Notes under the pieces: generated by a model
Databases searched by the model: none
The model's input: the letters and a program-made list of their open reading frames with translations, nothing else
What the model was told of the DNA's origin: nothing
Shown: piece by piece, positions 2 through 29,909 of the stretch
Layout of the letters: every line of letters starts with the position of its first letter
How positions within the stretch are numbered: the stretch's first letter is position 1
Origin: a virus
Taxonomy: Duplodnaviria; Caudoviricetes
IMG/VR virus record: IMGVR_UViG_3300033463_000020
Length of the DNA: 64,000 nt
Strand: one strand, 5' to 3'
Program-made: the position numbers and the translations under genes

Positions 2-3000
2 ATAGGCAAGGCCGCGTGGAGTAGGGTATTCGCAGGTTTGGGCGGTGCTAATGCAGCAGTGCCCGAAGTGCCTTATCGTATAACATGGAGTGATGCGATG
101 TGGTCGTTCGATACACTTAACACTGGGACAGAAGCGCGTATTAAATTGGGGGCACCGCCTACGGCTATAGATGACTATACATATGCCATTAGTGGGGCCG
201 CTGTTAATGGTGTCGGTAAAATAGGGACCGTTACCGATCATAGTGGTGCTGCTATCACGTTACCCGCGACTTTTGACAGTAGTGCCCTGTATTTCTGGGT
301 TTTGAATGCCAACGCTCCTTTGCGACTATATTTCCCGGTGGAGACTGTGGTCACTGCAGATTATACTAATCCTTATGTCTTAATTCCTACGGGAGACACA
401 GAATTAGTCGTTGGAGCCAATCATACTGCATATGATCTTTTGGTGGTCACTAACAATGCAATGGCCGCAGAGTCGAATCCGGCCTATGTTGTTGCGGGCA
501 ATGGCGCGGCTGCCATTACACGCTTGGATTTCATATTCCCTGCGGATTATAGTGCCCCTCCGAGTACTGTTGTGAATACTGACTATGTCAAGGTAGACAT
601 ATAGGGTACATCGGGTAGTGTAACATTTTCTTGGGTACGCGATGATGCGTCACATGGGCATGTGTTATTATCTGGGGTTACTGCACCATTGAAAGTTGCC
701 ATTTCTGGTATGTTGCGCCTGGCAGCGCCCACCCTAAGTCGTAGTGCGCCCACCAGTACCGTATTAGTTTGGACCAGTATACCGAACGCTACCGCGTACG
801 AGGTATACTTGGACGGCACATTGGTGACTACTACAAGTGCGCAAACATATGATTATGCTGACTATACTGGTACACCCACAGCTGGCTAGCATTTCTGGAC
901 AGTCTGTGCGGAGACAACGACGGGGGCATTTTCGAAAGAAACCTCCCCAGTTATCGCACAGTGGTATACGATCGTTAGCCAGTGTGCACGTTGCGAAGTC
1001 CGTCCGGGCTCAGATAGTGGTACTTGGGATTATACGTCGGCTACAATCTATTATGTGTTTGACACTAGCACGAATTTGGCTTGTCCATGGCAAGTTCCCA
1101 TGAGTAATGGTTAGCCCGGGGTCTGGTAGTGGACGTATTATAACTCGAGTTCGGGCAGCTTGTATATCTTGGGCGAAGATATGGCGGGTCTTGCAGCAGA
1201 TGGTGTCATTACGCAAAATACTTTATATATTAATGTGGGCGCAGTACCTAGGATCACTGCCCCGGTAATTTCATAGCGCGGCACGGTGATTTACTGGAGC
1301 ACGAGAGCCGAAGTAGAGAAATATCGTGTGTATGCCGATTACGGGACGGACGTGTTCACTGTTGATCTCCCCAGGCCCGCCAGTGGTGGTAGGTGCCAGT
1401 ATGATCTCTCCGATTATTTGACTCAAGCTACGACTTATGATATTTCTGTGGTGGCGTTTGGTACCAAGGGTCGTTTTTATGGCACCAGTCTACCTAGCAA
1501 TGTTATTACGGTCACACAAGAAGCGATATATGCTACCACCGAGAACGGTGCTACGGCCGAGGCGTCGAATCCTGATATGATATGGCATGGAACCTCTGTT
1601 GTGTTGAAATATTGGTTTGACGGCGTGAATTATATCTGTCCAACTACTGCGCCAACTGTTACGGGTGCGACAGGCAGCTGGACAAAAATTAGCGACCTGT
1701 ATGGTGAACTAACTATTTCGTCGCCTACTGGTTCGGTAGTATTCACTATTTCTGGCGTACCTGGCGTAAGTACTAGTTATACAACCGTCTGGGATACGGT
1801 GATCGAAGCAAGTGGTACTGCGGGTACGCCGCCCGCGGCCTGGGATGTCACTGAGTCAAGCTTGGCGTATTCATTTATTAGCAATAGCATTGCTTATACT
1901 GGTATTTATATCGACGAATATGGGTGTATGTATTATACGGCGAATAATATAAATACGCTTGTTTTTGATACGGTAGGTGCCGTGGGGCCCACTGGCTGGC
2001 AGGATGAGGGTTATCGCACCATTGTGTCTACCGTAGATCCCGACACAGTATTCTTGCAAGACTGGGCGGTTTTCTACGATAAAAATACCGACGGTGTGAT
2101 TCCCACCCCCTTGTTCCCCGTGCAATGGAACTTTGTCATGGAAACCGAGAGTCCTACAGATGTTGCGAACTATTGGACGGTCCTCGGTTCCTATGTTAAT
2201 GTTGGGTTCTACAGCAATGGCACGTCCTATACACGGTTCTCCGTTGACAGCGATGGTAGCATTTATTATGGTACGACGTCTAGTAACACACTTGTATATG
2301 ACTATATTGCTGGTTGGGTACTGCCTGCATACCGGACAATAGCATGTGAAACGAACCCTGAACTATCTTTTGTTGGCAGTGATTGGAGCGGTTTCTATCG
2401 CGCTAATACTGTCCAAACCTAGTGGAGGAGCAGTCTAGACACTGGTTTAGAAGTTGATGGCGGCTCTATTTGGGGCGTTAGAGACGAGACATTGTCGATT
2501 ACTTTTGTATCTAATAGCACGACATACTCGTCTATTTATATTGATACTGAGGGCAGCATGTATTATGGTGGCACCATGGTATATGAGTATCAGACCGGCT
2601 GGGTGAACGACGAGTATCGCATCATTACGACGGCGCAGCCCGCTACAACCGCATTCAATCACGGCGACTGGCTCACTTTTTATTATGCGAATACCGGCGC
2701 AGTGACGTATTGGCGCAGCAGATTGGAACCTTCAGGAGAGGATATGTCATATGAGGTGCTGAATCGGACCCTGTATTGTGCATTTATGTGCAATGGTACG
2801 ATGTATGCATCGCTGTCTTTTGATAATGCGGGTAATTTTTATTACAACACGGCCCGGTAGTTTGGTGGAGGTACCAAAGTTTACGACAACAATAGTGGCT
2901 GGGTACAGGGCGCCTATCGCTTGATCGCCACCGCTAGCAGCGGTAGCGAAGTCTTTGGCTTTGATGACCAAGACTGGTCAGATTTTTACGACGCGAATGC

Positions 3001-3022
3001 TAACATTACAGATGAAGATTAA
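2..3022 (+). CDS. Large virion structural/tail protein (5' truncated), FN3-like segments plus 4 C-terminal ~75-aa repeats; TAG=Gln
   Basis: ORFs 38-604, 662-889, 1286-2422 and 2492-2860 share one frame and are separated only by TAG; the first TAA is at 3020-3022. Repeat consensus F.SN.T.Y...D..G..YY...VYD..GW...YR.I...DW..FY..N. Confidence 0.75.
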
Positions 3023-3044
3023 AATTTAAAAGGAGGGGGATCTG

Positions 3045-4304
3045 ATGAGTACAACGACTCACTATGTTAATCTTAGTAGCGGCGACACCTTGGCGTTCAC
3101 GATTAATGACGAGGACGCTTTGGGTTATTATGCGAATGCCGGAACGGATATTGCGTGGTTGCAAAATGCTATCTCGGATAATACCGTTCAGGCTATTTTT
3201 CGGATTTATGTTTTATATCCCGACGAAACTATTGCTTATGAGATCCCCCGCGATCGCATTAAGTCTGGCGGTAGCTATAATGAAAATTATCAAAATGGCT
3301 AGCGGCGCACCTTGTCATTTACGTTGTACAACGAGGATGGACAGTACACCCCCAATGTTAATCAATTTTGGGTGGGTACGAAATTGCGTTTAGATATGGG
3401 GCTGTTATTGCCTTCGGGTAATAGCGTGTGGTTCCAAAAAGGCATTTTTGTGATTACCACCGCAGCCCCTTCTAAGGTCCCCGGGGCGCACGAGGTGAAT
3501 ATCTCTGCGGCAGATAAATATTGTTTGTTTGAGCAGGGGCGAGGAGTTTTAGGAAGTACATATGTTGTTCCGGTGAACACCGATATCTATGGTCTTATTT
3601 CGTCGATCTTATTTACCGACGGCGGGAACGGATATCTACTAGATTCAACACCGTTTTTGTTTAACCGTGCGCTGGAAACGAAAAAGACCTAGGCTGAAAT
3701 TACCAAAAGCGCCGGCGATAATTTGGGCAGTATCTTGTCAGATATTGCCCTGCAAATTAATGCTGAGGTTTTTTATAATTCTACAGGCCAATTGGTTTTT
3801 GCTCCGATCCCCGAAGTCACTGCTGATATTAATAAGCCCATTTTATACCATTATGAGACGCCCAAGGGTGACCTGAGTTAGCTGGACTTTAACTTGGATT
3901 ACGCTAATATTGTAAACCGAGTGGTGGTCATTGGCACGTCGTCGTCTGGAGGAACCTTTAGCTATGTGGTCGCTAATGACGATGCAACGTCGCCATTATG
4001 TTGGCAACGGATAGGTTTCCGTACCGGCGAGGTGATTACGGATACTAATATTTATTCGATGTAGCTAGCCAAAGAACGCGCCGAGTATGAGTTGAGATAG
4101 CGCTTAATTTTAACCAGTTCCGTAAATCTCACGATTATGTGCAACCCGTTTTTGTCGGTGAATAATTTAATTACGATTTCTGATGAGTTTTATGGTTTAA
4201 ATCGTGAAAAATTCTTAATTCAGTCTGTGGGATGTGCGTTGGATTTCTCGAACCAGATGCAAATTAGCGTAACAAATATTCGGAACCTACCATTTTTAAC
4301 TTGA
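3045..4304 (+). CDS. Putative baseplate hub/tail protein; TAG=Gln
   Basis: RBS GGAGG; 3045-3302 and 3312-3692 join through TAG to TGA at 4302-4304. Motifs (G.F.I...P, FYN..G.L.F, NRVVVIG, A.ERAEYELR) resemble phage tail hub proteins. Confidence 0.6.
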
Positions 4305-6061: not shown

Positions 6062-6692
6062 CATGAAGTCCTGGGAGCGGCATGAACTACCCAACGGTGA
6101 GCTGGTCATGTTTAATGCAGACGAGCATGCGTATATCGTACGTGACTAGGTAGTGCCCAGCGTCACAACGCTATTATAGACGGTTTATGGCAATCCATAT
6201 ACCGGCGTGAATCCGGAAACTCTGGACCGCGCAGCGAGATATGGCACTGCGGTACATAGCGAGCTAGAATCGTTGGTAAGCTATCGACAGGAGTGGGGGG
6301 AGGCCCCCACTCCGGAGATGATGCATTTTTAGGAAGTATAGAATTATTTTACCTATATTGAACCTATTTATTAGATAGTGCCGCAGCTCTTAGAGCGCGT
6401 GGTGGTGTTATATGATGCTGCTTAGCGCCCGGTCTCGGCCGGGCGTTTTGATATGCTGTGCACAGTAGCGGGGAAACCCTGTTTGGCCGATTTTAAGACT
6501 ACGTCGGCGATCCATCGCCCCCAAGTTACTGCATAGCTAAACTTATATCGGCGTGCTGCCGAGCAGTCGGGTTATTTGACCCAGGTTGGTTCGGTGTCGC
6601 TGGGGGTGATACACTTGCATGGCGAAACCAGTCGCTTTTTCCCTATCCCTATTTTGGGCGAGAATTTTCTAGAGCGATTTATCCCCAGTTGA
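6048..6692 (+). CDS. PD-(D/E)XK exonuclease hidden by 7 in-frame TAG
   Basis: F...H.Y...VPSVTTLL, YGTAVHSELE, AGRFDML, LADFKTT and A(TAG=Q)LNLY motifs. Absent from the ORF track. Confidence 0.85.
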
Positions 6693-6717
6693 CGGGGGAC
6701 TTGCATCCCAATATAAT
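6689..6717 (+). promoter_or_regulatory. sigma70-type promoter with CCCAA extension
   Basis: TTGACG-17bp-TATAAT. Confidence 0.85.
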
Positions 6718-6754
6718 GTGGGTAAAGTCCATGAAGTAAAAGGAAGGGTAAAAC

Positions 6755-7615
6755 ATGAATTTTCCTCTGCTGACCTCTGAAGACATCGAGGTCAAAGTCA
6801 AGACCATTACCAAAACAGGCGCGCTCTTGCTGCTATATAAAACGGCGCGCGTAGACGCCAAAATTTTGGATGAAACCGTAGGCCCGCTGAACTGGTGCTG
6901 TGACTATGAAGAAATTAAAGGTAATCTATTTTGCAGGGTCGGAGTGCGTGAAAGCGCCGACCAGGATTTTGTGTACAAAAGCGATTGCGGCATTGAGTCG
7001 GGCCAGGATGATGGCAACGAGAAGAAAGCCGAGGCCAGTGATGCATTTAAACGCGCCTGCAGCCGCTGGGGCATCGGACGCGAGTTGTACGACAGCTCTC
7101 TGCAGATCTGGGCTGAGGTAGCGACAGTTGAGCGCAATAACAAATGGTATTTACAGGATCCGTTTGCGCGTTATGTCGTAACGTCAATCGAGTATAATGA
7201 GCAGACTCGTGTAATTACGGCGCTCGAAATTTGCAATGCCAAAAGTAATGTGTGCGTCTTTTCATGGCGGCGACCGTCAGAAGGCGCCCTGGGGCGCAAA
7301 ATGGTGAAGACCTGGGGCGGGAATAATGAGTCTACTGATTCTCCGGCCAATACTGAGACGACGCCGAAAGCAGCGCCCAAGACGGTAGCTCAAGCCGAAA
7401 CCACGGATCGGATCCCGTTGGCACAGCTGATCAGCGATATCGGCGGCATGGTTAAGACGATGATGGCTAAAGACGGTGGGGCGGGCGCTTACAAGGACAT
7501 CGTGGCACGCATTGCGGGCAGCGCGTCGTTCCGCTGCAACACTGCCACGGAAGAGCAGTATGATATCGTAAAGGGTATCTACGACGCTCTTGCTGAGGCA
7601 GGATATGGCAACTAA
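6755..7615 (+). CDS. Rad52/Sak-like single-strand annealing protein
   Basis: LLLYKTARVD..ILDETVG...W and KAEASDAFKRACSRWGIGRELY motifs. Confidence 0.85.
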   Translation: MNFPLLTSEDIEVKVKTITKTGALLLLYKTARVDAKILDETVGPLNWCCDYEEIKGNLFCRVGVRESADQDFVYKSDCGIESGQDDGNEKKAEASDAFKRACSRWGIGRELYDSSLQIWAEVATVERNNKWYLQDPFARYVVTSIEYNEQTRVITALEICNAKSNVCVFSWRRPSEGALGRKMVKTWGGNNESTDSPANTETTPKAAPKTVAQAETTDRIPLAQLISDIGGMVKTMMAKDGGAGAYKDIVARIAGSASFRCNTATEEQYDIVKGIYDALAEAGYGN

Positions 7616-9735: not shown

Positions 9736-10857
9736 ATGTTAGATAGCAATAAAGTCAAAAAGCGCTTGACCACCGAGAATGTCATTGAGCTATGCTGCAC
9801 GCTACAGGATGACCGGAACGTGTTATATGATGCGCAGGGGCATCCGATTTTCAATACGTGTCTTTGCCACGGGGGAGACAGCGATAAGTTATATTATTAT
9901 CCCGAAACGCAATTGTTCCACTGCTACACCTGCGGTGATAGCTATGATATATTTTCGTTGGTTCAGCGCGCCAAGGGATGCGAATTTCGCGATGCGTTTC
10001 GGTATATCGTTGATTTTTTTAAGCTGAGAGGATTTCGAGACGACAGTGATGAAGATCCTCCGCTGAGCGATGACTGGGATATTTTCCAGCGCATTAAGGA
10101 CTGCGAAACCAATGGGGTCGTGCGCGAAGAAGCGCCCCCGATGCCCGAAAATCTATTGGAATTTTTCTACCCGCTCGCCGCGCCTCAGGAGTGGCAGCGC
10201 GATGGCATCAGCCCACAGGTCATGCGTGCCTTCGGCATTCGGATAGATAGTGCCTTGCAGCATATCATTATCCCGCACCGTAACGTGCGAGGTGAGCTTA
10301 TTGGGATCCGGCGGCGCTCTTATGATCCGCTGGAAGTAGCCGGTGGTAAGAAGTATATGCCGGTAATGATCGAGGGCGATATATATCGTCATAGTCTAGG
10401 CAGCAATTTATTTGGGCTATATGAAAATCAGCGTGTTATTCATAACACGCAAAAAGTTTTAGTAGCCGAATCCGAGAAGTCGGTTTTGCAACTCGCTAGT
10501 ATGTACGGGCTCGATCAGTGCTGGGCAGTTGCGACATGTGGCTCGTCGTTTTCACAGACGCAGATGAGCCTGCTACTGGAGCTCGGAGTATCTGAAGTGG
10601 TTTTGGGATTTGACCATGAGTTTACTGGTGGCCGCGGCGCAGATGATACTGTGGCGTATGAGGCTAAGCTTTTGAAAGTGGTGGCCCCTCTATTACCATA
10701 CGTCAATGTTTCGGTAATCATGGACTATGATGGATTGACGAAGTATAAGGACTCGCCCACTGATTGTGGCCGCGAGATTTTTGAACAACTTTATCACCAG
10801 CGGATACGGTTGTATACTTATGATGAAAAAAGAAAGACGAGGAAAAGGAATGGCTGA
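9736..10857 (+). CDS. dnaG: DNA primase (CHC2 Zn finger + TOPRIM)
   Basis: CH...FHCYTC Zn finger; IIIPHRN..GELIGIRRR; VAESEKS; LGFDHE. Confidence 0.85.
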   Translation: MLDSNKVKKRLTTENVIELCCTLQDDRNVLYDAQGHPIFNTCLCHGGDSDKLYYYPETQLFHCYTCGDSYDIFSLVQRAKGCEFRDAFRYIVDFFKLRGFRDDSDEDPPLSDDWDIFQRIKDCETNGVVREEAPPMPENLLEFFYPLAAPQEWQRDGISPQVMRAFGIRIDSALQHIIIPHRNVRGELIGIRRRSYDPLEVAGGKKYMPVMIEGDIYRHSLGSNLFGLYENQRVIHNTQKVLVAESEKSVLQLASMYGLDQCWAVATCGSSFSQTQMSLLLELGVSEVVLGFDHEFTGGRGADDTVAYEAKLLKVVAPLLPYVNVSVIMDYDGLTKYKDSPTDCGREIFEQLYHQRIRLYTYDEKRKTRKRNG

Positions 10858-24563: not shown

Positions 24564-25114
24564 GTCGTAAGAGATTTAGTGACTGGGACGATTACGATGA
24601 GTTCGAGGACACAGGCGGATACACTAAACTGTCCAAAAGCGATAAGCGTCGTCAGCATGAATTAGAAAATGTACGGCGTCCTAAGCGCGGTCATCGGCAC
24701 AGTCCCACTTTAGATTGGGAGATCCTCGATGATCCTATTCCGGAACCGATAGAGTCGCCTGTAACGCCAGTAGAGTCGCCCGCAGAACCGCCCCCGTCTG
24801 TTACGCCTCCCGCCGTAGTGTTTGACCCCGATGCTACCACATTTGGTACGCCTAAGGGATTAACTGACATGAATACCCGGGTGGTGAAGGGGAATGAAAT
24901 CAACTATGATCGCGTGGTAGACATGTGCAAAGTCGAAAACGACCACAACGGTCGTTTGACCTATGGAATTAAGTTCACATTCTTTGGGACTACCGCGCAA
25001 CGAGAGTTATCACGTATTGCTTGGTTCAACATTAACCAAGCTGAGCGTGACCGTTTATATACTCAAGAACGCAAATTTTGGCAGTCTCTTCAGGGAGATA
25101 GAAAGGATAGTTAA
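24560..25114 (+). CDS. Hypothetical protein
   Basis: Overlaps both neighbours (ATGA and TAATG); Pro-rich linker. Confidence 0.6.
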   Translation: MSRKRFSDWDDYDEFEDTGGYTKLSKSDKRRQHELENVRRPKRGHRHSPTLDWEILDDPIPEPIESPVTPVESPAEPPPSVTPPAVVFDPDATTFGTPKGLTDMNTRVVKGNEINYDRVVDMCKVENDHNGRLTYGIKFTFFGTTAQRELSRIAWFNINQAERDRLYTQERKFWQSLQGDRKDS

Positions 25115-25773
25115 TGAAGAACCGTATGTGTACTGGTACCGAGGTAGCTGTAGTGGGGCTTTCCGACGTATTGTCTGAGCTGCCCCTGGCCGAAATGGCG
25201 GCCCTGCCGGCGCCGAGCACGCTAATGTATTACCTTGATCGCAACGATCGGATGTTGTGGCTCGAAGGCGACGTTGACGAGGACGTTTTGAGCCTCGAAA
25301 AGCAGATCTTATATTTTAATCGGTGCGATGCCGGGATCCCCCCCGCAGAACGCAAGCCTATCAAACTGCTGATCTATAGCTATGGCGGAGATGGGGTGGC
25401 TAGCTTCAGCTTAATCGACGTGATTTTGAATAGCCAGACGCCCATTTACACCATTAATATGGGTGTGGCTATGAGTGCGGCGTTGGTCATTCTGTTGGCC
25501 GGGCACAAGCGCTATTGTTTGCCTCGGTCTGTTGCATTGATCCACTCTGGTTCGGGTGGTACCAATGGAACCTATGAGCAGAACGAGGCTCAGATGAAAG
25601 ACTACCAGCACTTCGTAGGTGTAATGCGCGATTTCATTCTAGAACGCACCTCTATTACCGCCAAGACCTTCAATAAACAGAAGGGCAAGGAATGGTATCT
25701 TTATGCCGCAGATCAGGTATCACACCACGTCGTAGACGCTGTGATTAATAGTCTAGACGAAATTAACCCCTGA
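25114..25773 (+). CDS. clpP: ClpP-like serine protease subunit
   Basis: PIKLLIYSYGG, catalytic AMSAA, LIHS, WYL.A. Confidence 0.88.
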   Translation: MKNRMCTGTEVAVVGLSDVLSELPLAEMAALPAPSTLMYYLDRNDRMLWLEGDVDEDVLSLEKQILYFNRCDAGIPPAERKPIKLLIYSYGGDGVASFSLIDVILNSQTPIYTINMGVAMSAALVILLAGHKRYCLPRSVALIHSGSGGTNGTYEQNEAQMKDYQHFVGVMRDFILERTSITAKTFNKQKGKEWYLYAADQVSHHVVDAVINSLDEINP

Positions 25774-25779
25774 TTTAAG

Positions 25780-25808
25780 TGGACAAATGAAATCCACCCC
25801 AATATAAT
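25780..25808 (+). promoter_or_regulatory. sigma70-type promoter with CCCAA extension, upstream of the tRNA island
   Basis: TGGACA-17bp-TATAAT. Confidence 0.75.
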
Positions 25809-25863
25809 GGGGATGTCAGCCGGGGCGCGGCCAGTTGAGCCAGATTCTAACGCCCCGGCGTAT

Positions 25864-25940
25864 GGGACGGTAGCCCAACGGCAGCAGGCAGCAGACTCAA
25901 AATCTGCCAAGTGAGGGTTCGAATCCCTCTCGTCCCACCA
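25864..25940 (+). tRNA. tRNA with CAA (Leu) anticodon but short variable loop
   Basis: GGGACGG/TCGTCCC-A-CCA acceptor; GCAGA-CTCAAAA-TCTGC anticodon arm; TTCGAAT T-loop; 5-nt variable region. Confidence 0.88.
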
Positions 25941-25954
25941 ATTGCTCTGTGATC

Positions 25955-26128
25955 TTTGCGGATTAGGAGACGCGTCGGAAGCGCAAACTTCGTGGATGCG
26001 GGTGCCAGTCTATGAAGGCTCGCAGGTGAAGTCGCCCTCGGGCGATAAGGCCGTCCCTTGTTGCAGGACGGGGAGCGTATAAAGGGCAAATCTGGCAACG
26101 GCCGGTACCTGAGACCACGAATCCGGCC
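25955..26128 (+). ncRNA. Candidate pseudoknotted structured RNA of unknown class
   Basis: At least 7 short complementary helices, two of them crossing; no + strand ORF. Confidence 0.5.
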
Positions 26129-26138
26129 ATCTGAATAA

Positions 26139-26213
26139 TGGGGTGTAGTATAAAGGTCAGTACAACGGTCTCTAAAACCGAGAATCTCAGTTCGAGTCTG
26201 AGCGCCCCCGCCA
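26139..26213 (+). tRNA. Amber suppressor tRNA (anticodon CUA), probably Gln-charged
   Basis: CGGT-CTCTAAA-ACCG arm with CTA at 26172-26174; CTCAG-TTCGAGT-CTGAG T arm; G2:C71, G3:C70, G73, unpaired 1:72, encoded CCA. Confidence 0.93.
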
Positions 26214-26219
26214 TTACAC

Positions 26220-26286
26220 GGGGGCGTAGCCGGATGGCTAGGCGGTGGTTATTCCACTAAGGCAAGGTCCCTCCTTGCCGCCCCCT
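26220..26286 (+). ncRNA. Degenerate tRNA-like element
   Basis: 7-bp acceptor GGGGGCG/CGCCCCC plus D and T stems, but 5-nt anticodon loop, aberrant T loop and no CCA. Confidence 0.6.
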
Positions 26287-26294
26287 CAACACTT

Positions 26295-26369
26295 AGGGAT
26301 GTAGCCAAGTGGTAAGGCAATGGACTTTGACTCCATCACTCGTAGGTCCGAATCCTGCCATCCCTGCCA
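26295..26369 (+). tRNA. tRNA-Gln(UUG)
   Basis: ATGGA-CTTTGAC-TCCAT arm, G73, CCA. Confidence 0.93.
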
Positions 26370-26409
26370 ATATGTTCGCTTTGCGCGAACGATTCTTTAG
26401 GAGGTAAGC

Positions 26410-26610
26410 ATGAAGAAGTTTATTGCACTTGGCCTAGCCCTTCTTTGCATACTGGTTTGTGTGATCGGATGCGATAAGAAGAAGGGAGAAGAGGAGACCA
26501 CCGTCGAAGAGACTGAAGAGATCGTGGAAACCACGGAGGCTCCTGAGACAAACGAGGATACCACCGAAGTTGTCGAGCCCGTTACCGAGATAGAAACGAC
26601 GGCTGTTTAA
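26410..26610 (+). CDS. Small acidic lipoprotein
   Basis: RBS GGAGG; MKK + hydrophobic stretch + VIGC lipobox; E/T-rich tail. Confidence 0.75.
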   Translation: MKKFIALGLALLCILVCVIGCDKKKGEEETTVEETEEIVETTEAPETNEDTTEVVEPVTEIETTAV

Positions 26611-26624
26611 GTAATATTATACCC

Positions 26625-26987
26625 ATGGTAATCTGCGGAAAGCCCATGAAAGACAGAGATTTGCGGATCTGTGGGCGATCGGATGAGTCTGAAGCCCTTA
26701 ATGCGAAAGGTACAGTATTAACTTTTATCTAGAGACGATGGCCGGATGCGGCCGCGCACTGGACGGATGGTAACTGTTACTGGTTTGCGCAGATATTGAT
26801 TATGCGTTTTCCTTGGCTGTAGTTATATTACATGCCGACGATTGGACATTTCGTTGCTGGTGCGCCGCCGTAGTATTATGATGCTAATGGTTTAAACACC
26901 GAAAATGATGAACACATTCTATTCAGTACGTTGGCGCGGCAAGATCCGGCCTGGGCTGATCGAATTCTACGAGATTGTAGAGACTAA
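26625..26987 (+). CDS. Hypothetical phage protein hidden by 3 in-frame TAG
   Basis: Open under code 15; GNCYWFA.IL..RF...GHFV motif. Start uncertain (26625 or 26646). Confidence 0.65.
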
Positions 26988-27174
26988 TATTTGCCAGTTC
27001 GCAAGCTGCACTCTTGCGTGAGGCCCGTGCAGGGGCCAAAAGGTGAGCAACTACCCTAAAGAGAGCGCCGGACATCTCGCCCGTTGAGGAGAAAAGAATG
27101 GGTCAAATACTCCTATCCCATCACCAGCACGCAAGGGCATGCGGAAGAGTCAGGTTAAAGTTGGAGTCTTTTAT

Positions 27175-27261
27175 GCCAGTGTGGCGGAATCGGCAGACGC
27201 AACGGACTTAAAATCCGTTGTCCGCAAGGGCGTATGGGTTCAAGTCCCATCACTGGTACCA
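27175..27261 (+). tRNA. tRNA-Leu(UAA)
   Basis: Class II cloverleaf, ACGGA-CTTAAAA-TCCGT, A73, CCA. Confidence 0.95.
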
Positions 27262-27272
27262 GCGCCTCATAT

Positions 27273-27388
27273 GGGGAAGTATGTTGGAAGCCAAAGAAGG
27301 AATGATGACAACATTTCATAGATACGGCTCATTAGCAAACGGTTAGTTCGTCACTAAAGTCGAGGGTGCAAATCCCTTCTCTCCACCA
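27273..27388 (+). ncRNA. tRNA-like element (acceptor + T arm, atypical interior)
   Basis: 5' GGGGAAG pairs with 3' CTCTCC-A-CCA; GAGGG-TGCAAAT-CCCTT T arm. Confidence 0.5.
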
Positions 27389-27395
27389 ATATTTT

Positions 27396-27486
27396 GCAGG
27401 GATACCCAAGCGGCCGAAGGGGGCTGCCTACTAAGCAGCTAGGCTTGGCAACGAGTGCCTGGGTTCGAATCCCAGTCCCTGCGCCA
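27396..27486 (+). tRNA. tRNA-Ser with rare ACU anticodon
   Basis: GCTGC-CTACTAA-GCAGC arm, long variable arm, G73, CCA. Confidence 0.88.
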
Positions 27487-27946
27487 ATTAGGGAGATTCC
27501 TTCCGCAGTCGGATCAACTCCCTCCGGGTGATGCCGGGCAAAACAAATGGATCGACGGGGCGTATTCAGGCAGGGCCGATGACCACAGCATTAACCCTCC
27601 AGTTCATGAACGGGTTGGCAAACCTCTCGCGAGAGGAAGCTTCCATCAAAATGCCCTTGCTCGGGTCTGAAGCATTGAGAAGACCATATGATGCTCAGGA
27701 TGAAACGCTTGGTGGTGAGAGCGGCTGACCCGAGAATTATTGGGGCGACAAAATCCGGGAGATGTACCGACATCTGTGCTCGAGGGCTGAGGCAACGAGT
27801 GAAAACAAAGACCCCAGAAAAGTTTTCGGAAATAACTATAAACCGACATAGAGTTCAAGGGTTGGCGGTCTGTGCCCCTCGGTTGCAAGCGGGAGACGAG
27901 AAGGACCACGCATGGAAATGAACGGCAGTGCGAAAAACCGCCATTT

Positions 27947-28023
27947 GGCTCATTAGCTCAGTTGGTCAGAGCGAGTGACTGTTAATCATTAGGTCATAGG
28001 TTCAAGTCCTATATGAGCCTCCA
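27947..28023 (+). tRNA. tRNA-Asn(GUU)
   Basis: AGTGA-CTGTTAA-TCATT arm, CCA; atypical U73. Confidence 0.9.
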
Positions 28024-28026
28024 CAT

Positions 28027-28123
28027 ATCCACCTAGCTCAACACGGTAGAGCCTGTTGCTTTCGGAGCGGTATATGCAACATAAACGCGCTCGATGCGGG
28101 TTCGAATCCCGCGGTGGGTACCA
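28027..28123 (+). ncRNA. tRNA-like element with expanded anticodon arm
   Basis: Canonical acceptor, D arm, GCGGG-TTCGAAT-CCCGC T arm and CCA, but stem TGTTGC/GCAACA closes a 16-nt loop. Confidence 0.7.
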
Positions 28124-28490
28124 AAAGACGGGTGTAGACACCCGCGAACAGTAATTGTTCTATACTGTTTAGCCGATGACGGAAGTTGTTTGGTTAGGGA
28201 AGCGACTTTCAGAGGGCCTATTACAATGGTTAGCGCTGATCCAATGCCTGACTAGGTAAGTGAGCACTTACCGAAAGAAAAGCGTAACTCTCGACCAAAT
28301 AATCGGGGTGCAGATGCACTTCTTACCAGCCCGCCCGGTGGCGCGAGAGTTCATTTTTAGACAAAAAAACTTAAGGTGCTACGGACCTCTCCCCACTAGG
28401 CCTTGGACTTGGACGAACTGGCGATGGGTAGAGCTTAGCGTAACGGCCGGGCAGTAGTTAAATGGAGTTCGATGAACAGCCTTAAGATAC

Positions 28491-28669
28491 AATACAGTGG
28501 CGGAATAGGTAGACGCTTAAAGAGTTGGTTGAGAGGTTCGAGTCCTTAACAAGCCTCATAGGTATAGGGTGTATACAACGTGAGATACACTCAATGGGGC
28601 AGTGCAATCGGAGCGCACCATTTAAAGGTCGTAACTTCTCATATAAGGTGCAAATCCTTATCTGTATTA
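28491..28669 (+). ncRNA. tRNA-like element with ~120-nt insert
   Basis: AATACAG/CTGTATT-A acceptor, Leu-type D arm (TGGCGGAATAGGTAGACGC) and T arm ATAAGGTGCAAATCCTTAT flank a long insert. Confidence 0.65.
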
Positions 28670-28677
28670 AATTATAA

Positions 28678-28754
28678 TGGGGTGTCGCCTAACGGTATGG
28701 CGCTTGATTTGGGATCAAGAACCAAAGCAGGTCCGACTCCTGTTACCCCAACCA
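28678..28754 (+). tRNA. tRNA-Pro(UGG)
   Basis: CTTGA-TTTGGGA-TCAAG arm; acceptor TGGGGTG/TACCCCA; CCA. Confidence 0.85.
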
Positions 28755-29125
28755 GGCCATTGTAGCATTAAAGGCCTCGATTCTAATTGGTGGATAGGGA
28801 ATTAAAGCAGTCCACCCCGGCAAGCAGAGAGATAACCGTTGCTACGCGGAAAGCGCTCCCTAGTCTGCATCAAATTGCTGGCAACCTCAGGTGCGCTCCT
28901 GAGATTGGTCCATACAACGGTAGACAAGCATTGAAAGTCAGGAAGAAAATAACAGCGGGATCTAAAGTTGGGACACATTGAGATCCACCTTAACAGGGTT
29001 AGATGACCCAGTACCAAGGAAGTGCACCCCAAGCCCGCCCCGTGTGATTGAGCCGACGCGCACGGCAACTGCACACCCGGTGTATGATTTAGCGCAATTT
29101 TTATTGGCCAATGGAGGACACAAAC

Positions 29126-29404
29126 ATGGATGATCGTTGGTTTTTGATTGAGTTGCAGAACCGGCCGGATGGAATTACCAATTCCACCATAAACAGTTAC
29201 AGCACTCAGCAAACCACCCGCGCGATGTTTTATCAGCGTTGTGCTGCGGCATGCAGCAGCCAGCAGTTTGTTACTGTTTCGCTGATCATCGTGGATTCAC
29301 ACGGGAACATTATCGAAGACAAAGAGTTGATGACTTCTTATGTTCCCCCGGAACCCGAGCCCGAACCTGAGCCGGAGCCGGAACCGGAACCCGATCCGGA
29401 ATAA
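29126..29404 (+). CDS. Small protein with (PE)n tail, paralogue of 60801-61055
   Basis: RBS GGAGG; LIELQ.RPDG..NS.I..YST...MFYQRCAAA shared with the paralogue. Confidence 0.75.
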   Translation: MDDRWFLIELQNRPDGITNSTINSYSTQQTTRAMFYQRCAAACSSQQFVTVSLIIVDSHGNIIEDKELMTSYVPPEPEPEPEPEPEPEPDPE

Positions 29405-29446
29405 TAATCTATTGCAGAGTAGCGGACGTTTCCGCTCTCTGCTCAT

Positions 29447-29531
29447 GTCGGAATGGTGAAATGGCAGCCACGCGAGATTTAGGATCTCGTTCCGAGAAGG
29501 AGTGCAGGTTCAAGTCCTGTTTCCGACACCA
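29447..29531 (+). tRNA. tRNA-Leu(UAG)
   Basis: CGAGA-TTTAGGA-TCTCG arm, long variable arm, A73, CCA. Confidence 0.93.
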
Positions 29532-29585
29532 AAAAAACATATTATAAAATAGTGCTTTTATTTGGCACGGAAGGAAGGGTAAACA

Positions 29586-29909
29586 ATGAAAATTATTGAA
29601 ACAGCTAATGGACAGCAGCAGGTGGTGGGAGTTTCGGAGTGCGAACTCCGTGAAACCAGTGATGGCCTCATTTGGGCGCCCTGCCTTTCGGCCCGGGACT
29701 ATGCGGAGATTTGTGAGATTGCACCGCATGATACACAGGCTCCGGCACGAGCCGCAATGTCCACAGAAGAATACGTCGCCAGTTTAGACGACCGTGAAAT
29801 ACAGGCGCAGGCAACTTATGCCGCATATCTCAGTGAAAAGATTGCGGATGGTGAGGCCCTCCAGGCCTTTCTGAGTACGCAAGGAGGAGGCATGTATGTC
29901 AGAAGCTAA
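29586..29909 (+). CDS. Hypothetical protein
   Basis: RBS present; overlaps the next gene. Confidence 0.6.
   Translation: MKIIETANGQQQVVGVSECELRETSDGLIWAPCLSARDYAEICEIAPHDTQAPARAAMSTEEYVASLDDREIQAQATYAAYLSEKIADGEALQAFLSTQGGGMYVRS

Follow-up and report, generated by a model that had tools for sequence, protein, structure and literature searches.

What kind of RNA has the ends of a tRNA, together with its D and T arms, and nothing with which to read a codon? This question is raised by positions 28491-28668 (+ strand, 178 nt) of a 64,000-nt stretch of DNA from a tailed phage (Caudoviricetes; IMG/VR record IMGVR_UViG_3300033463_000020), the whole of which is called the window here. At these positions an RNA gene lies inside the phage tRNA cluster. 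A preliminary description of the window had reported a tRNA-shaped shell in which a structured insert replaces the decoding arm, and every part that it listed was recovered where it had been placed. We found that the element belongs to a large family of phage RNAs with a conserved shell and exchangeable middles, and we hold with moderate confidence that it is a non-decoding mimic of tRNA-Leu that undergoes tRNA-like processing and exerts its effect through the conserved top half.

Read from 28491 to 28669, the element consists of AATACAG, TG, the D arm GCG-GAATAGGTAGA-CGC, an insert of 126 nt, ATAAGG-TGCAAAT-CCTTAT, CTGTATT, and a single A (Table 1). The segment at 28498-28516 is a D arm of the class II tRNA-Leu type and gave BLAST matches to the tRNA-Leu(taa) genes of two other phage loci (L005 and L001). 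The Leu-type D arm and complete acceptor and T arms of the preliminary description were thus borne out, with seven of seven terminal pairs, the match to tRNA-Leu(taa), and a T stem of 6 bp. About 126 nt stand in place of the anticodon and variable arms; CAU is at 28640-28642 and the T loop UGCAAAU at 28649-28655. Since there is no anticodon arm, the RNA cannot read codons. A decoding tRNA (RF00005) was rejected accordingly: no 5-bp anticodon stem with a 7-nt loop is present, no RF00005 match was obtained at E ≤ 10, and ARAGORN made no call at the element, even with introns of 0-400 nt allowed. Indeed, no Rfam 15 family matched the element, either at the gathering threshold or at E ≤ 10, when positions 25500-29700 were searched. 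Transfer-messenger RNA was rejected because the ARAGORN search for it and the Rfam families for it returned nothing, and pair 3-70 is U-A, not G3.U70.

The hairpins that had been ascribed to the insert were all present as letters, namely AGG-TTCGAGT-CCT at 28535-28547, GTGTAT/ATACAC at 28569-28574/28585-28590, and GTGC/GCAC at 28602-28605/28614-28617. In the minimum free energy (MFE) fold, however, the first of these, which resembles a T arm, did not form. Whether the shell was constrained or left free, a basal helix consumed the bases of this hairpin and carried the GUGUAU/AUACAC and GUGC hairpins. With folding z-scores of only -2.35 (whole element) and -2.1 (insert), the folding energy by itself is unremarkable. 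The shell is beyond chance, and this conclusion is drawn from comparative and not from thermodynamic evidence.

Relatives were collected with two 19-base T-arm patterns from cultured phages, phage contigs, and genomes of Bacillota. One IMG/VR contig (L006) matched the 3' end of the element exactly; its copy agrees with the element in terminal stem, D arm, and T arm, has a different middle of 66 nt, and is followed by a terminator. The 19-base T arm alone was found in 67 viral contigs and 25 genome contigs, the latter mostly from Bacillota, and the T-arm variant GTRAGGTGCAAATCCTYAC occurred in at least 120 further contigs among the matches listed. In nearly all matches, the 7 nt 3' of the T arm pair with the 7 nt directly before TGG[CT]GGAATAGGTAGAC[GA]C. 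In total, at least 194 copies were obtained, corresponding to at least 138 representatives at no more than 80% similarity, with total lengths of 80-265 nt. The family is uncatalogued and is defined here by alignments A1/A2 and covariance model R1. Neither at the gathering threshold nor at E ≤ 1 did a member match an Rfam 15 family, and we found no description of the family in the literature, either by concept or by motif letters.

MAFFT alignments of 39 and 48 members showed that the three helices of the shell were paired in 99% and 98% of cells, respectively. Double-sided changes were seen in 12 of the 16 pairs, including all seven pairs of the terminal stem, two of the three D-stem pairs, and three pairs of the T stem, where pairs 1-3 covary among relatives as AU/GC, UA/CG, and AU/GC. 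The covariation score was 0.56-0.66, compared to 0.14-0.18 in shuffled alignments (none of 500 shuffles reached the observed value) and 0.06-0.16 when the pairing partners were slid; for the 48-member alignment, the score was 0.656 against 0.178 in shuffles. In a degenerate scan that permitted all four purine/pyrimidine combinations at one T-stem pair, we obtained A-T 40 times, G-C 37 times, G.T three times, and A.C never, that is, 0 mismatches among 80 copies. Across the 138 representatives, U8, G9, A14, A15, A17, G18, G19, and the whole T loop were invariant or nearly so, with A15 present in 138/138 and a U directly before the T stem in 136/138. The loop TGCAAAT, which has G55, occurred in only one of the 457 ordinary tRNAs called in the same loci, and it therefore marks the family. 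Covariation among homologues, which the preliminary description had named as a check, thus shows a real, conserved family whose terminal, D, and T stems covary strongly.

Covariance model R1 was trained on 48 members with the window copy left out. It matched the window copy at full length with 65.4 bits (E 1e-14), model positions 1-112 covering 28491-28668. Family members scored 50-87 bits, and true tRNA-Leu genes scored 27-42 bits, including 27.2 bits for the window's own. The window copy has all four features of the family: the model match, the shell stems, the motif (C)AU-UGCAAAU, and a private middle without an anticodon stem-loop. These comparisons show that the family exists and that its structure is strongly selected, with the window copy as a full-length member. 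The same model matched none of three other tRNA-like elements at 26220, 27273, and 28027, so the proposal that these four local scaffolds form one family did not hold; the relatives of the element are hundreds of copies elsewhere. Overall, the observation made in the preliminary description was confirmed, and its interpretation was partly supported.

These data bear directly on whether the element is a decaying or chimeric pseudogene, in which a tRNA-Leu was broken by insertion or recombination and left without function. The insert is private to the window phage, the T-arm-like hairpin within it could be a relic of another tRNA, and no CCA is encoded after the stem (CTGTATT-A-AAT), unlike in the adjacent tRNAs, since all nine tRNAs called by ARAGORN in the island encode it. 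However, the shell persists in hundreds of independent copies, with each of its three stems showing compensatory changes, and G55 in all copies indicates a separate selected lineage and not decay. Near relatives of the window phage argue in the same direction: in two DNA sequencing runs from other studies, contigs were collinear across the element with 0.7-2.7% differences over their whole spans, and none of the difference rows listed lay inside the element. A functionless relic is thus extremely improbable.

An interrupted tRNA-Leu gene, in which the middle of ~120 nt would be an unknown type of intron whose removal yields a functional tRNA, is also very hard to maintain. Bacterial tRNA-Leu(UAA) genes are a classic home of group I introns, the shell is of the tRNA-Leu type, and the shortest members of the family are as long as a class II tRNA (80-84 nt). 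However, no match to Intron_gpI, another intron, or a ribozyme was found at E ≤ 10, and ARAGORN, allowing introns of up to 400 nt, found none. A group I intron (RF00028) was specifically rejected for the 126-nt insert, since the search that gave no match at E ≤ 10 detected one in L005. In the short members L047 and L017, the middle contains no 5-bp stem closing a 7-nt anticodon loop, no pair of exons restores an anticodon arm in the window copy, and the phage already has tRNA-Leu genes with anticodons taa, caa, and tag. Many contigs do join ~28516-28519 to ~28637-28644, but their matching sides are only 20-29 nt long, and they occur in DNA and RNA runs alike, so they represent other family members and not spliced RNA. 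The earlier exclusion of a group I or group II intron was therefore upheld by Rfam, by ARAGORN, and by the joined halves in DNA runs. Both the splicing and the pseudogene readings are effectively excluded.

In contrast to the shell, the inserts are extremely diverse. The 138 representatives carry 120 insert clusters, of which 112 are singletons, and 14 terminal-stem sequences are common to members with unrelated inserts. The insert of the window copy forms a cluster of size 1, and no homologue of it turned up in the rest of the window or in the 222 loci retrieved. An exact 29-mer of this insert had 0 matches in the viral-contig collection, which lacks the window's own contig, and a 27-mer across the 3' junction in the window phage had 0 matches in metagenome contigs. 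By eye, other members have a linker of 8-14 nt 3' of the D arm and usually a helix of 6-7 bp that stops right at the (C)AU before the T stem, and the window copy fits both. The shortest inserts are ~30 nt (L047, L017), and a T-arm-like hairpin inside the insert was seen in only four of the 138 representatives. About 18% of members also carry a module in the D loop, between G18 and G19, and together with the middle insert this indicates that the shell tolerates expansion at two sites. In a subgroup (L044, L070, L020, L010, L013, L019, L076, L080, L097, and others), the D-loop module is conserved and 60-100 nt long; it opens with ACA, closes with AATA, and includes GGTAAAAC.

Exchange of the middle was seen between the flanks of the window phage itself. 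A 206-nt contig from an RNA library (run X20, record 11) matched 28455-28516 (62 nt) and 28639-28691 (53 nt) with 0 differences, and 91 different letters replaced the 122 nt of 28517-28638. Identical flanks around a different 91-nt middle indicate the same phage with a different cassette. The population data are assembled contigs only, which are uninformative on the ends or the level of a transcript.

Such swapping would suit a natural tRNA scaffold for cargo, as proposed in the preliminary description, in which the shell only provides processing and protection from nucleases and the insert, as a different aptamer, sponge, or antisense RNA in each phage, is the functional part. The inserts occupy exactly the site used for engineered cargo, they are folded into a basal helix with hairpins, cassettes are swapped between identical shells, inserts are conserved within the sub-lineages of L006 and L083, and the engineered counterpart reportedly functions in bacteria (PMC3753655). 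On the other hand, a mere scaffold should accept any tRNA and drift, and the use of one tRNA type with a near-invariant loop and T-stem sequence in all 138 lineages counts against it. Moreover, 112 of the 120 insert types are singletons, some inserts are only ~30 nt long, and no insert matches an Rfam family at E ≤ 1. Antisense matches between inserts and neighbouring DNA were not in excess either: with 11- to 14-mers, we counted 38, 11, 1, and 0 antisense matches and 69, 30, 20, and 14 direct matches, and no antisense target of the window insert was found within the 64-kb window. The extreme conservation of the shell and the lack of a shared or targeted insert weaken the pure cargo reading, but cassette exchange keeps it alive, and we regard it as doubtful.

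The genomic positions of the family members raise a further alternative. In large phages, the family sits in tRNA arrays, often close to ROOL or drum RNAs. In 40-kb temperate phages, the copy is usually found immediately 5' of the genes for packaging (terS, terL, portal, minor head protein), often 20-30 nt ahead of a ribosome-binding site (RBS). In several copies, a -10 box ends 7-12 nt 5' of the first base of the stem, and terminators follow the copies in L006 and L091. Two copies were found in one phage in L038 (718-980), L041 (1724-1837 and 3320-3453), and L095 (204-308 and 6139-6318); these doubled copies are in tandem or kilobases apart, and their stems, T-arm variants, and inserts all differ.

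The many copies that stand ahead of an RBS and an open reading frame (ORF), in numerous cases where the packaging module begins, could be taken as cis-acting processing signals and not as trans-acting RNAs. They would be cleavage sites for RNase P and 3' nucleases that punctuate long phage transcripts and set the ends of neighbouring tRNAs or of a downstream late mRNA. RNase P-type cleavage needs only the top half of a tRNA, and the window copy has a 200-nt spacer on one side and tRNA-Pro on the other. This explanation is nevertheless quite unlikely, since stand-alone copies have their own promoter and terminator (L006, L091, L089, L095), and the Leu-specific hinge residues and the odd G55 would be superfluous for a bare cleavage site. 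The downstream genes are also mutually unrelated: no family was common to the genes downstream of the copies, and only packaging genes recurred as neighbours.

The reading that we prefer is therefore the non-decoding tRNA-Leu mimic introduced above. Under this reading, the promoter near 25800 would drive transcription of the element together with the tRNA cluster, and tRNA maturation enzymes (RNase P, 3' trimming, and CCA addition) would excise the RNA by reading its top half. The shell would then occupy, or be a substrate of, a host factor that recognises the elbow and acceptor end of tRNA-Leu. The prime candidate for such a partner is leucyl-tRNA synthetase (LeuRS), because its identity elements are the parts conserved here and the anticodon arm is not needed. 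In E. coli, leucine identity elements are A73, A14, G18G19, and the A15-U48 pair, and leucylation does not require the anticodon arm, although editing by LeuRS does (reviewed in PMC9976931). The conserved hinge set of the family (U8, A14, A15, G18 G19, and a U48-like residue) overlaps this identity set, and the window copy has an A at the discriminator position. Behaviour like that of a tRNA is also suggested by the location of the window copy in a tRNA array and, elsewhere, by copies with their own promoter, with terminators in L006 and L091. The insert would be a peripheral domain that is freely replaced in each lineage, with the near-identical sequences of the D and T arms as the probable sites of recombination.

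Several observations weigh against this preferred reading. The RNA-side evidence consists of contigs, and RNA libraries can contain DNA. Among the 138 representatives, the stem is followed by A in only 48% and by U in 35%, frequencies not above those expected from the A/T-rich flanks, and an encoded CCA is very rare (within 5 nt of the stem end in 7/138), so that charging by LeuRS throughout the family is weakened. The terminal stem can be extended to an eighth pair in 68% of members, and the stack of acceptor and T stems is 13 bp rather than 12, which means that the ends are not strictly tRNA-like. Similarly, G55 departs from a universally conserved tRNA residue. Finally, the inserts are folded and conserved within sub-lineages (e.g., L006 and L083), and they are thus perhaps not mere periphery.

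A bolder variant of the LeuRS proposal is unlikely. In it, the RNAs would be matured, tagged with CCA, and recognised, perhaps leucylated, by LeuRS, with no proof-reading possible because the anticodon arm required for editing is missing. The exchangeable inserts would then serve as specificity modules in the conflict between phage and host. For example, they could act as decoys or sponges against factors by which acceptor ends and elbows of tRNAs are attacked or sensed.

The closest known RNAs are T5 RNA1 and T4 rnaC/rnaD, and the window element follows the plan of T5 RNA1 and T4 rnaC, with a location in a phage tRNA cluster, a tRNA-like terminal stem and T arm, and a middle that is not that of a tRNA. 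T5 RNA1 (NC_005859 30501-30644), annotated as a 'tRNA-like stable RNA with unknown functions', has a Leu-type D arm (CCGGAATTGGTAGACGGG), the T arm GAAGG-TTCAACT-CCTTC, a terminal stem, and ~78 nt replacing the anticodon arm. It differs in its Gram-negative host, its normal U55 T loop, its T stem of 5 bp, and two U.U mismatches in its terminal stem. The family model matched T5 RNA1 from end to end with 26.7 bits (E 2e-4), which is no higher than the 27.2 bits of a real tRNA-Leu, so common descent with the family is not established. T4 rnaC and rnaD (species 1 and 2 RNAs; NC_000866 70908-71171) are small stable RNAs that end the T4 tRNA cluster. T4 rnaC has a canonical T arm, an acceptor-like terminal stem, and a middle of ~100 nt, but no Leu-type D arm is evident in rnaC or rnaD, and the family model did not match them. 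To our knowledge, rnaC and rnaD have been without an assigned function for ~50 years.

Among cellular RNAs, class II tRNA-Leu (RF00005) is represented in the window by tRNA-Leu(taa) at 27175-27261, which has a near-identical D arm (TGGCGGAAT.GG.AGACGC). It shares U8, A14, A15, G18 G19, the U48 hinge, and a 7-bp terminal stem with the element, whereas the element lacks the anticodon arm, the long variable arm, and CCA, and has a T stem of 6 bp and G55. Engineered tRNA scaffolds use tRNA-Lys or tRNA-Met shells. These scaffolds follow the same plan, with a foreign RNA at the site of the anticodon arm within an intact shell of acceptor, D, and T arms (PMC3753655 and earlier work of that group). 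However, they are man-made and the cargo is their point, whereas in the phage family the shell is the conserved part. The two ends of YrlA belong to its Ro-binding stem, and its T arm comes before its D arm, in permuted order. Like the element, YrlA (RF02553) is non-coding and has a tRNA-like module of acceptor, D, and T arms without an anticodon, and some phages carry it (PMC4201824). YrlA or another bacterial Y RNA was rejected as the identity of the element, since RF02553 gave no match at E ≤ 10 and the arms of the element are in tRNA order.

Phages have been known to encode tRNA-like stable RNAs since the 1970s (T4 species 1 and 2, T5 RNA1), and we know of no function for any of them. Our results indicate that one such design forms a very large and strongly conserved family across phages of Bacillota, whose carriers span 40-kb temperate phages, Herelleviridae, and a rumen phage with a recoded stop codon. 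If the leucylated or decoy reading were true, it would make these RNAs a natural class of tRNA-scaffolded effectors across phages of Gram-positive bacteria. The family is missing from Rfam 15 and is unannotated in GenBank records, including that of the model phage SPP1. Annotation pipelines overlook such genes or place spurious ORFs on them. Since SPP1 and Bacillus subtilis are genetically tractable, the role of phage tRNA mimics without an anticodon is directly testable.

Unannotated copies in cultured phages were found in Leuconostoc phage LN34 and its relatives, in Lactiplantibacillus phage H1-Guo, in Bacillus phage SPP1 (NC_004166, ~6648-6755), and in the tRNA region of Enterococcus phage EFDG1 and other Schiekviruses. 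These copies surfaced with a 33-nt T-arm BLAST query at E ≤ 10, whereas an 82-nt member had no match among cultured phages at E ≤ 0.01. The SPP1 genome paper mentions no tRNA or non-coding RNA (PMC6316719). In the SPP1 record, the member overlaps the minus-strand ORF of 'gene 10' (6525-6734), which is flagged as conflicting with its translation. About 20 nt past the SPP1 member (L222, region 6648-6860) lies a miniature hairpin of acceptor stem and T arm, ACGGAC...CGGGTTCAATTCCCG...GTCCGT, followed by a run of T.

Table 1. Parts of the tRNA-like element and neighbouring features of the tRNA island, in window coordinates.
Feature	Position	Strand	Basis or remark
5' strand of the 7-bp terminal (acceptor-like) stem, AAUACAG	28491-28497	+	7/7 Watson-Crick pairs with 28662-28668
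U8-G9 and Leu-type D arm, letters TGGCGGAATAGGTAGACGC	28498-28516	+	BLAST match to 5' part of tRNA-Leu(taa)
D arm proper, GCG-GAAUAGGUAGA-CGC	28500-28516	+	Sequence reading
Purine-rich unpaired linker UUAAAGAGUUGGU, D arm to insert helix	28517-28529	+	Free and constrained folds
Private structured insert	28530-28641	+	Constrained ViennaRNA fold; 16-bp basal helix 28530-28547/28625-28641, hairpins 28553-28600 and 28602-28616
Alternative T-arm-like hairpin, GAGG-UUCGAGU-CCUU	28534-28548	+	Letters present; mutually exclusive with basal helix; not in MFE fold
U48-equivalent U ahead of T stem	28642	+	Putative Levitt-type pairing with A15
T arm, 6-bp stem AUAAGG/CCUUAU, loop UGCAAAU	28643-28661	+	G where tRNAs have U55
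3' strand of terminal stem, CUGUAUU	28662-28668	+	Model match stops at 28668
A at discriminator-like position	28669	+	Followed by AAU, no CCA
Likely promoter of the tRNA island, TGGACA-17-TATAAT	25780-25808	+	Consensus scan, 11/12 matches
tRNA-Pro(tgg)	28678-28754	+	ARAGORN and Rfam; 9 nt downstream of element, tRNA-like spacing
drum RNA (RF02958)	28171-28289		46 bits (gathering threshold 43); 200 nt upstream of element

In the window, the element lies in a nearly ORF-free island of 3.7 kb between the gene for a ClpP-like protease (25114-25773) and that for a giant repeat protein (from 29896). The island contains nine tRNAs called by ARAGORN, all on the + strand, as well as the drum RNA and several long spacers. 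The consensus scan that gave the likely island promoter found no promoter-like site directly 5' of the element. Phage replication and head proteins were confirmed to be encoded in the window. The closest relatives of the ClpP-like protein (P0002 and P0003) have 78-80% identity to it, and the anchor protein at 29126-29404 had no relatives among viral contigs. Five loci retrieved through the ClpP-like protein (L001-L005, 40-64% identity) have tRNAs, the drum RNA, and the tRNA-like element of 28027 in common with the window, and none of them contains a copy of the element studied here. Drum or ROOL RNAs also adjoin family members in L046, L030, and L091. Within the otherwise non-coding island, reading TAG as Gln gives an ORF of 120 codons at 26625-26987 with three in-frame TAGs. 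One of the five loci, from a related 132-kb phage contig (L005), has a ROOL RNA (252 bits) directly before a tRNA-like element called with a 4-base anticodon, and also a RAGATH-18 RNA and a group I intron (listed spans 2960-3535, 6764-6836, and 10123-10353).

The other tRNA-like elements of the island differ from one another. At 28027-28123, ARAGORN called a 97-nt 'tRNA-Arg(tcg)' with an over-long middle. Its homologue in L001 (10794-10865) has an acceptor stem that differs yet pairs, and the core GGAGCGGTA...TAAACGCGCTCGATG is kept. The element at 28027 is thus a second, distinct conserved tRNA-like RNA. The tRNA-like element at 27273-27388 has the same odd T loop (GAGGG-TGCAAAT-CCCTT) and an encoded CCA, without a Leu-type D arm; the family model found only the loop (E 5), and its folding z-score was 0.08. 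A 163-nt contig from an RNA library (X19, record 3) covers 27253-27415 with one difference. The element at 26220-26288 is a miniature cloverleaf of 69 nt, with a suppressor tRNA on one side and tRNA-Gln on the other. It has no CCA, its 'anticodon' and 'T' loops are 5 nt long, and its four tight stems give an MFE of -38.2 kcal/mol (z = -2.99).

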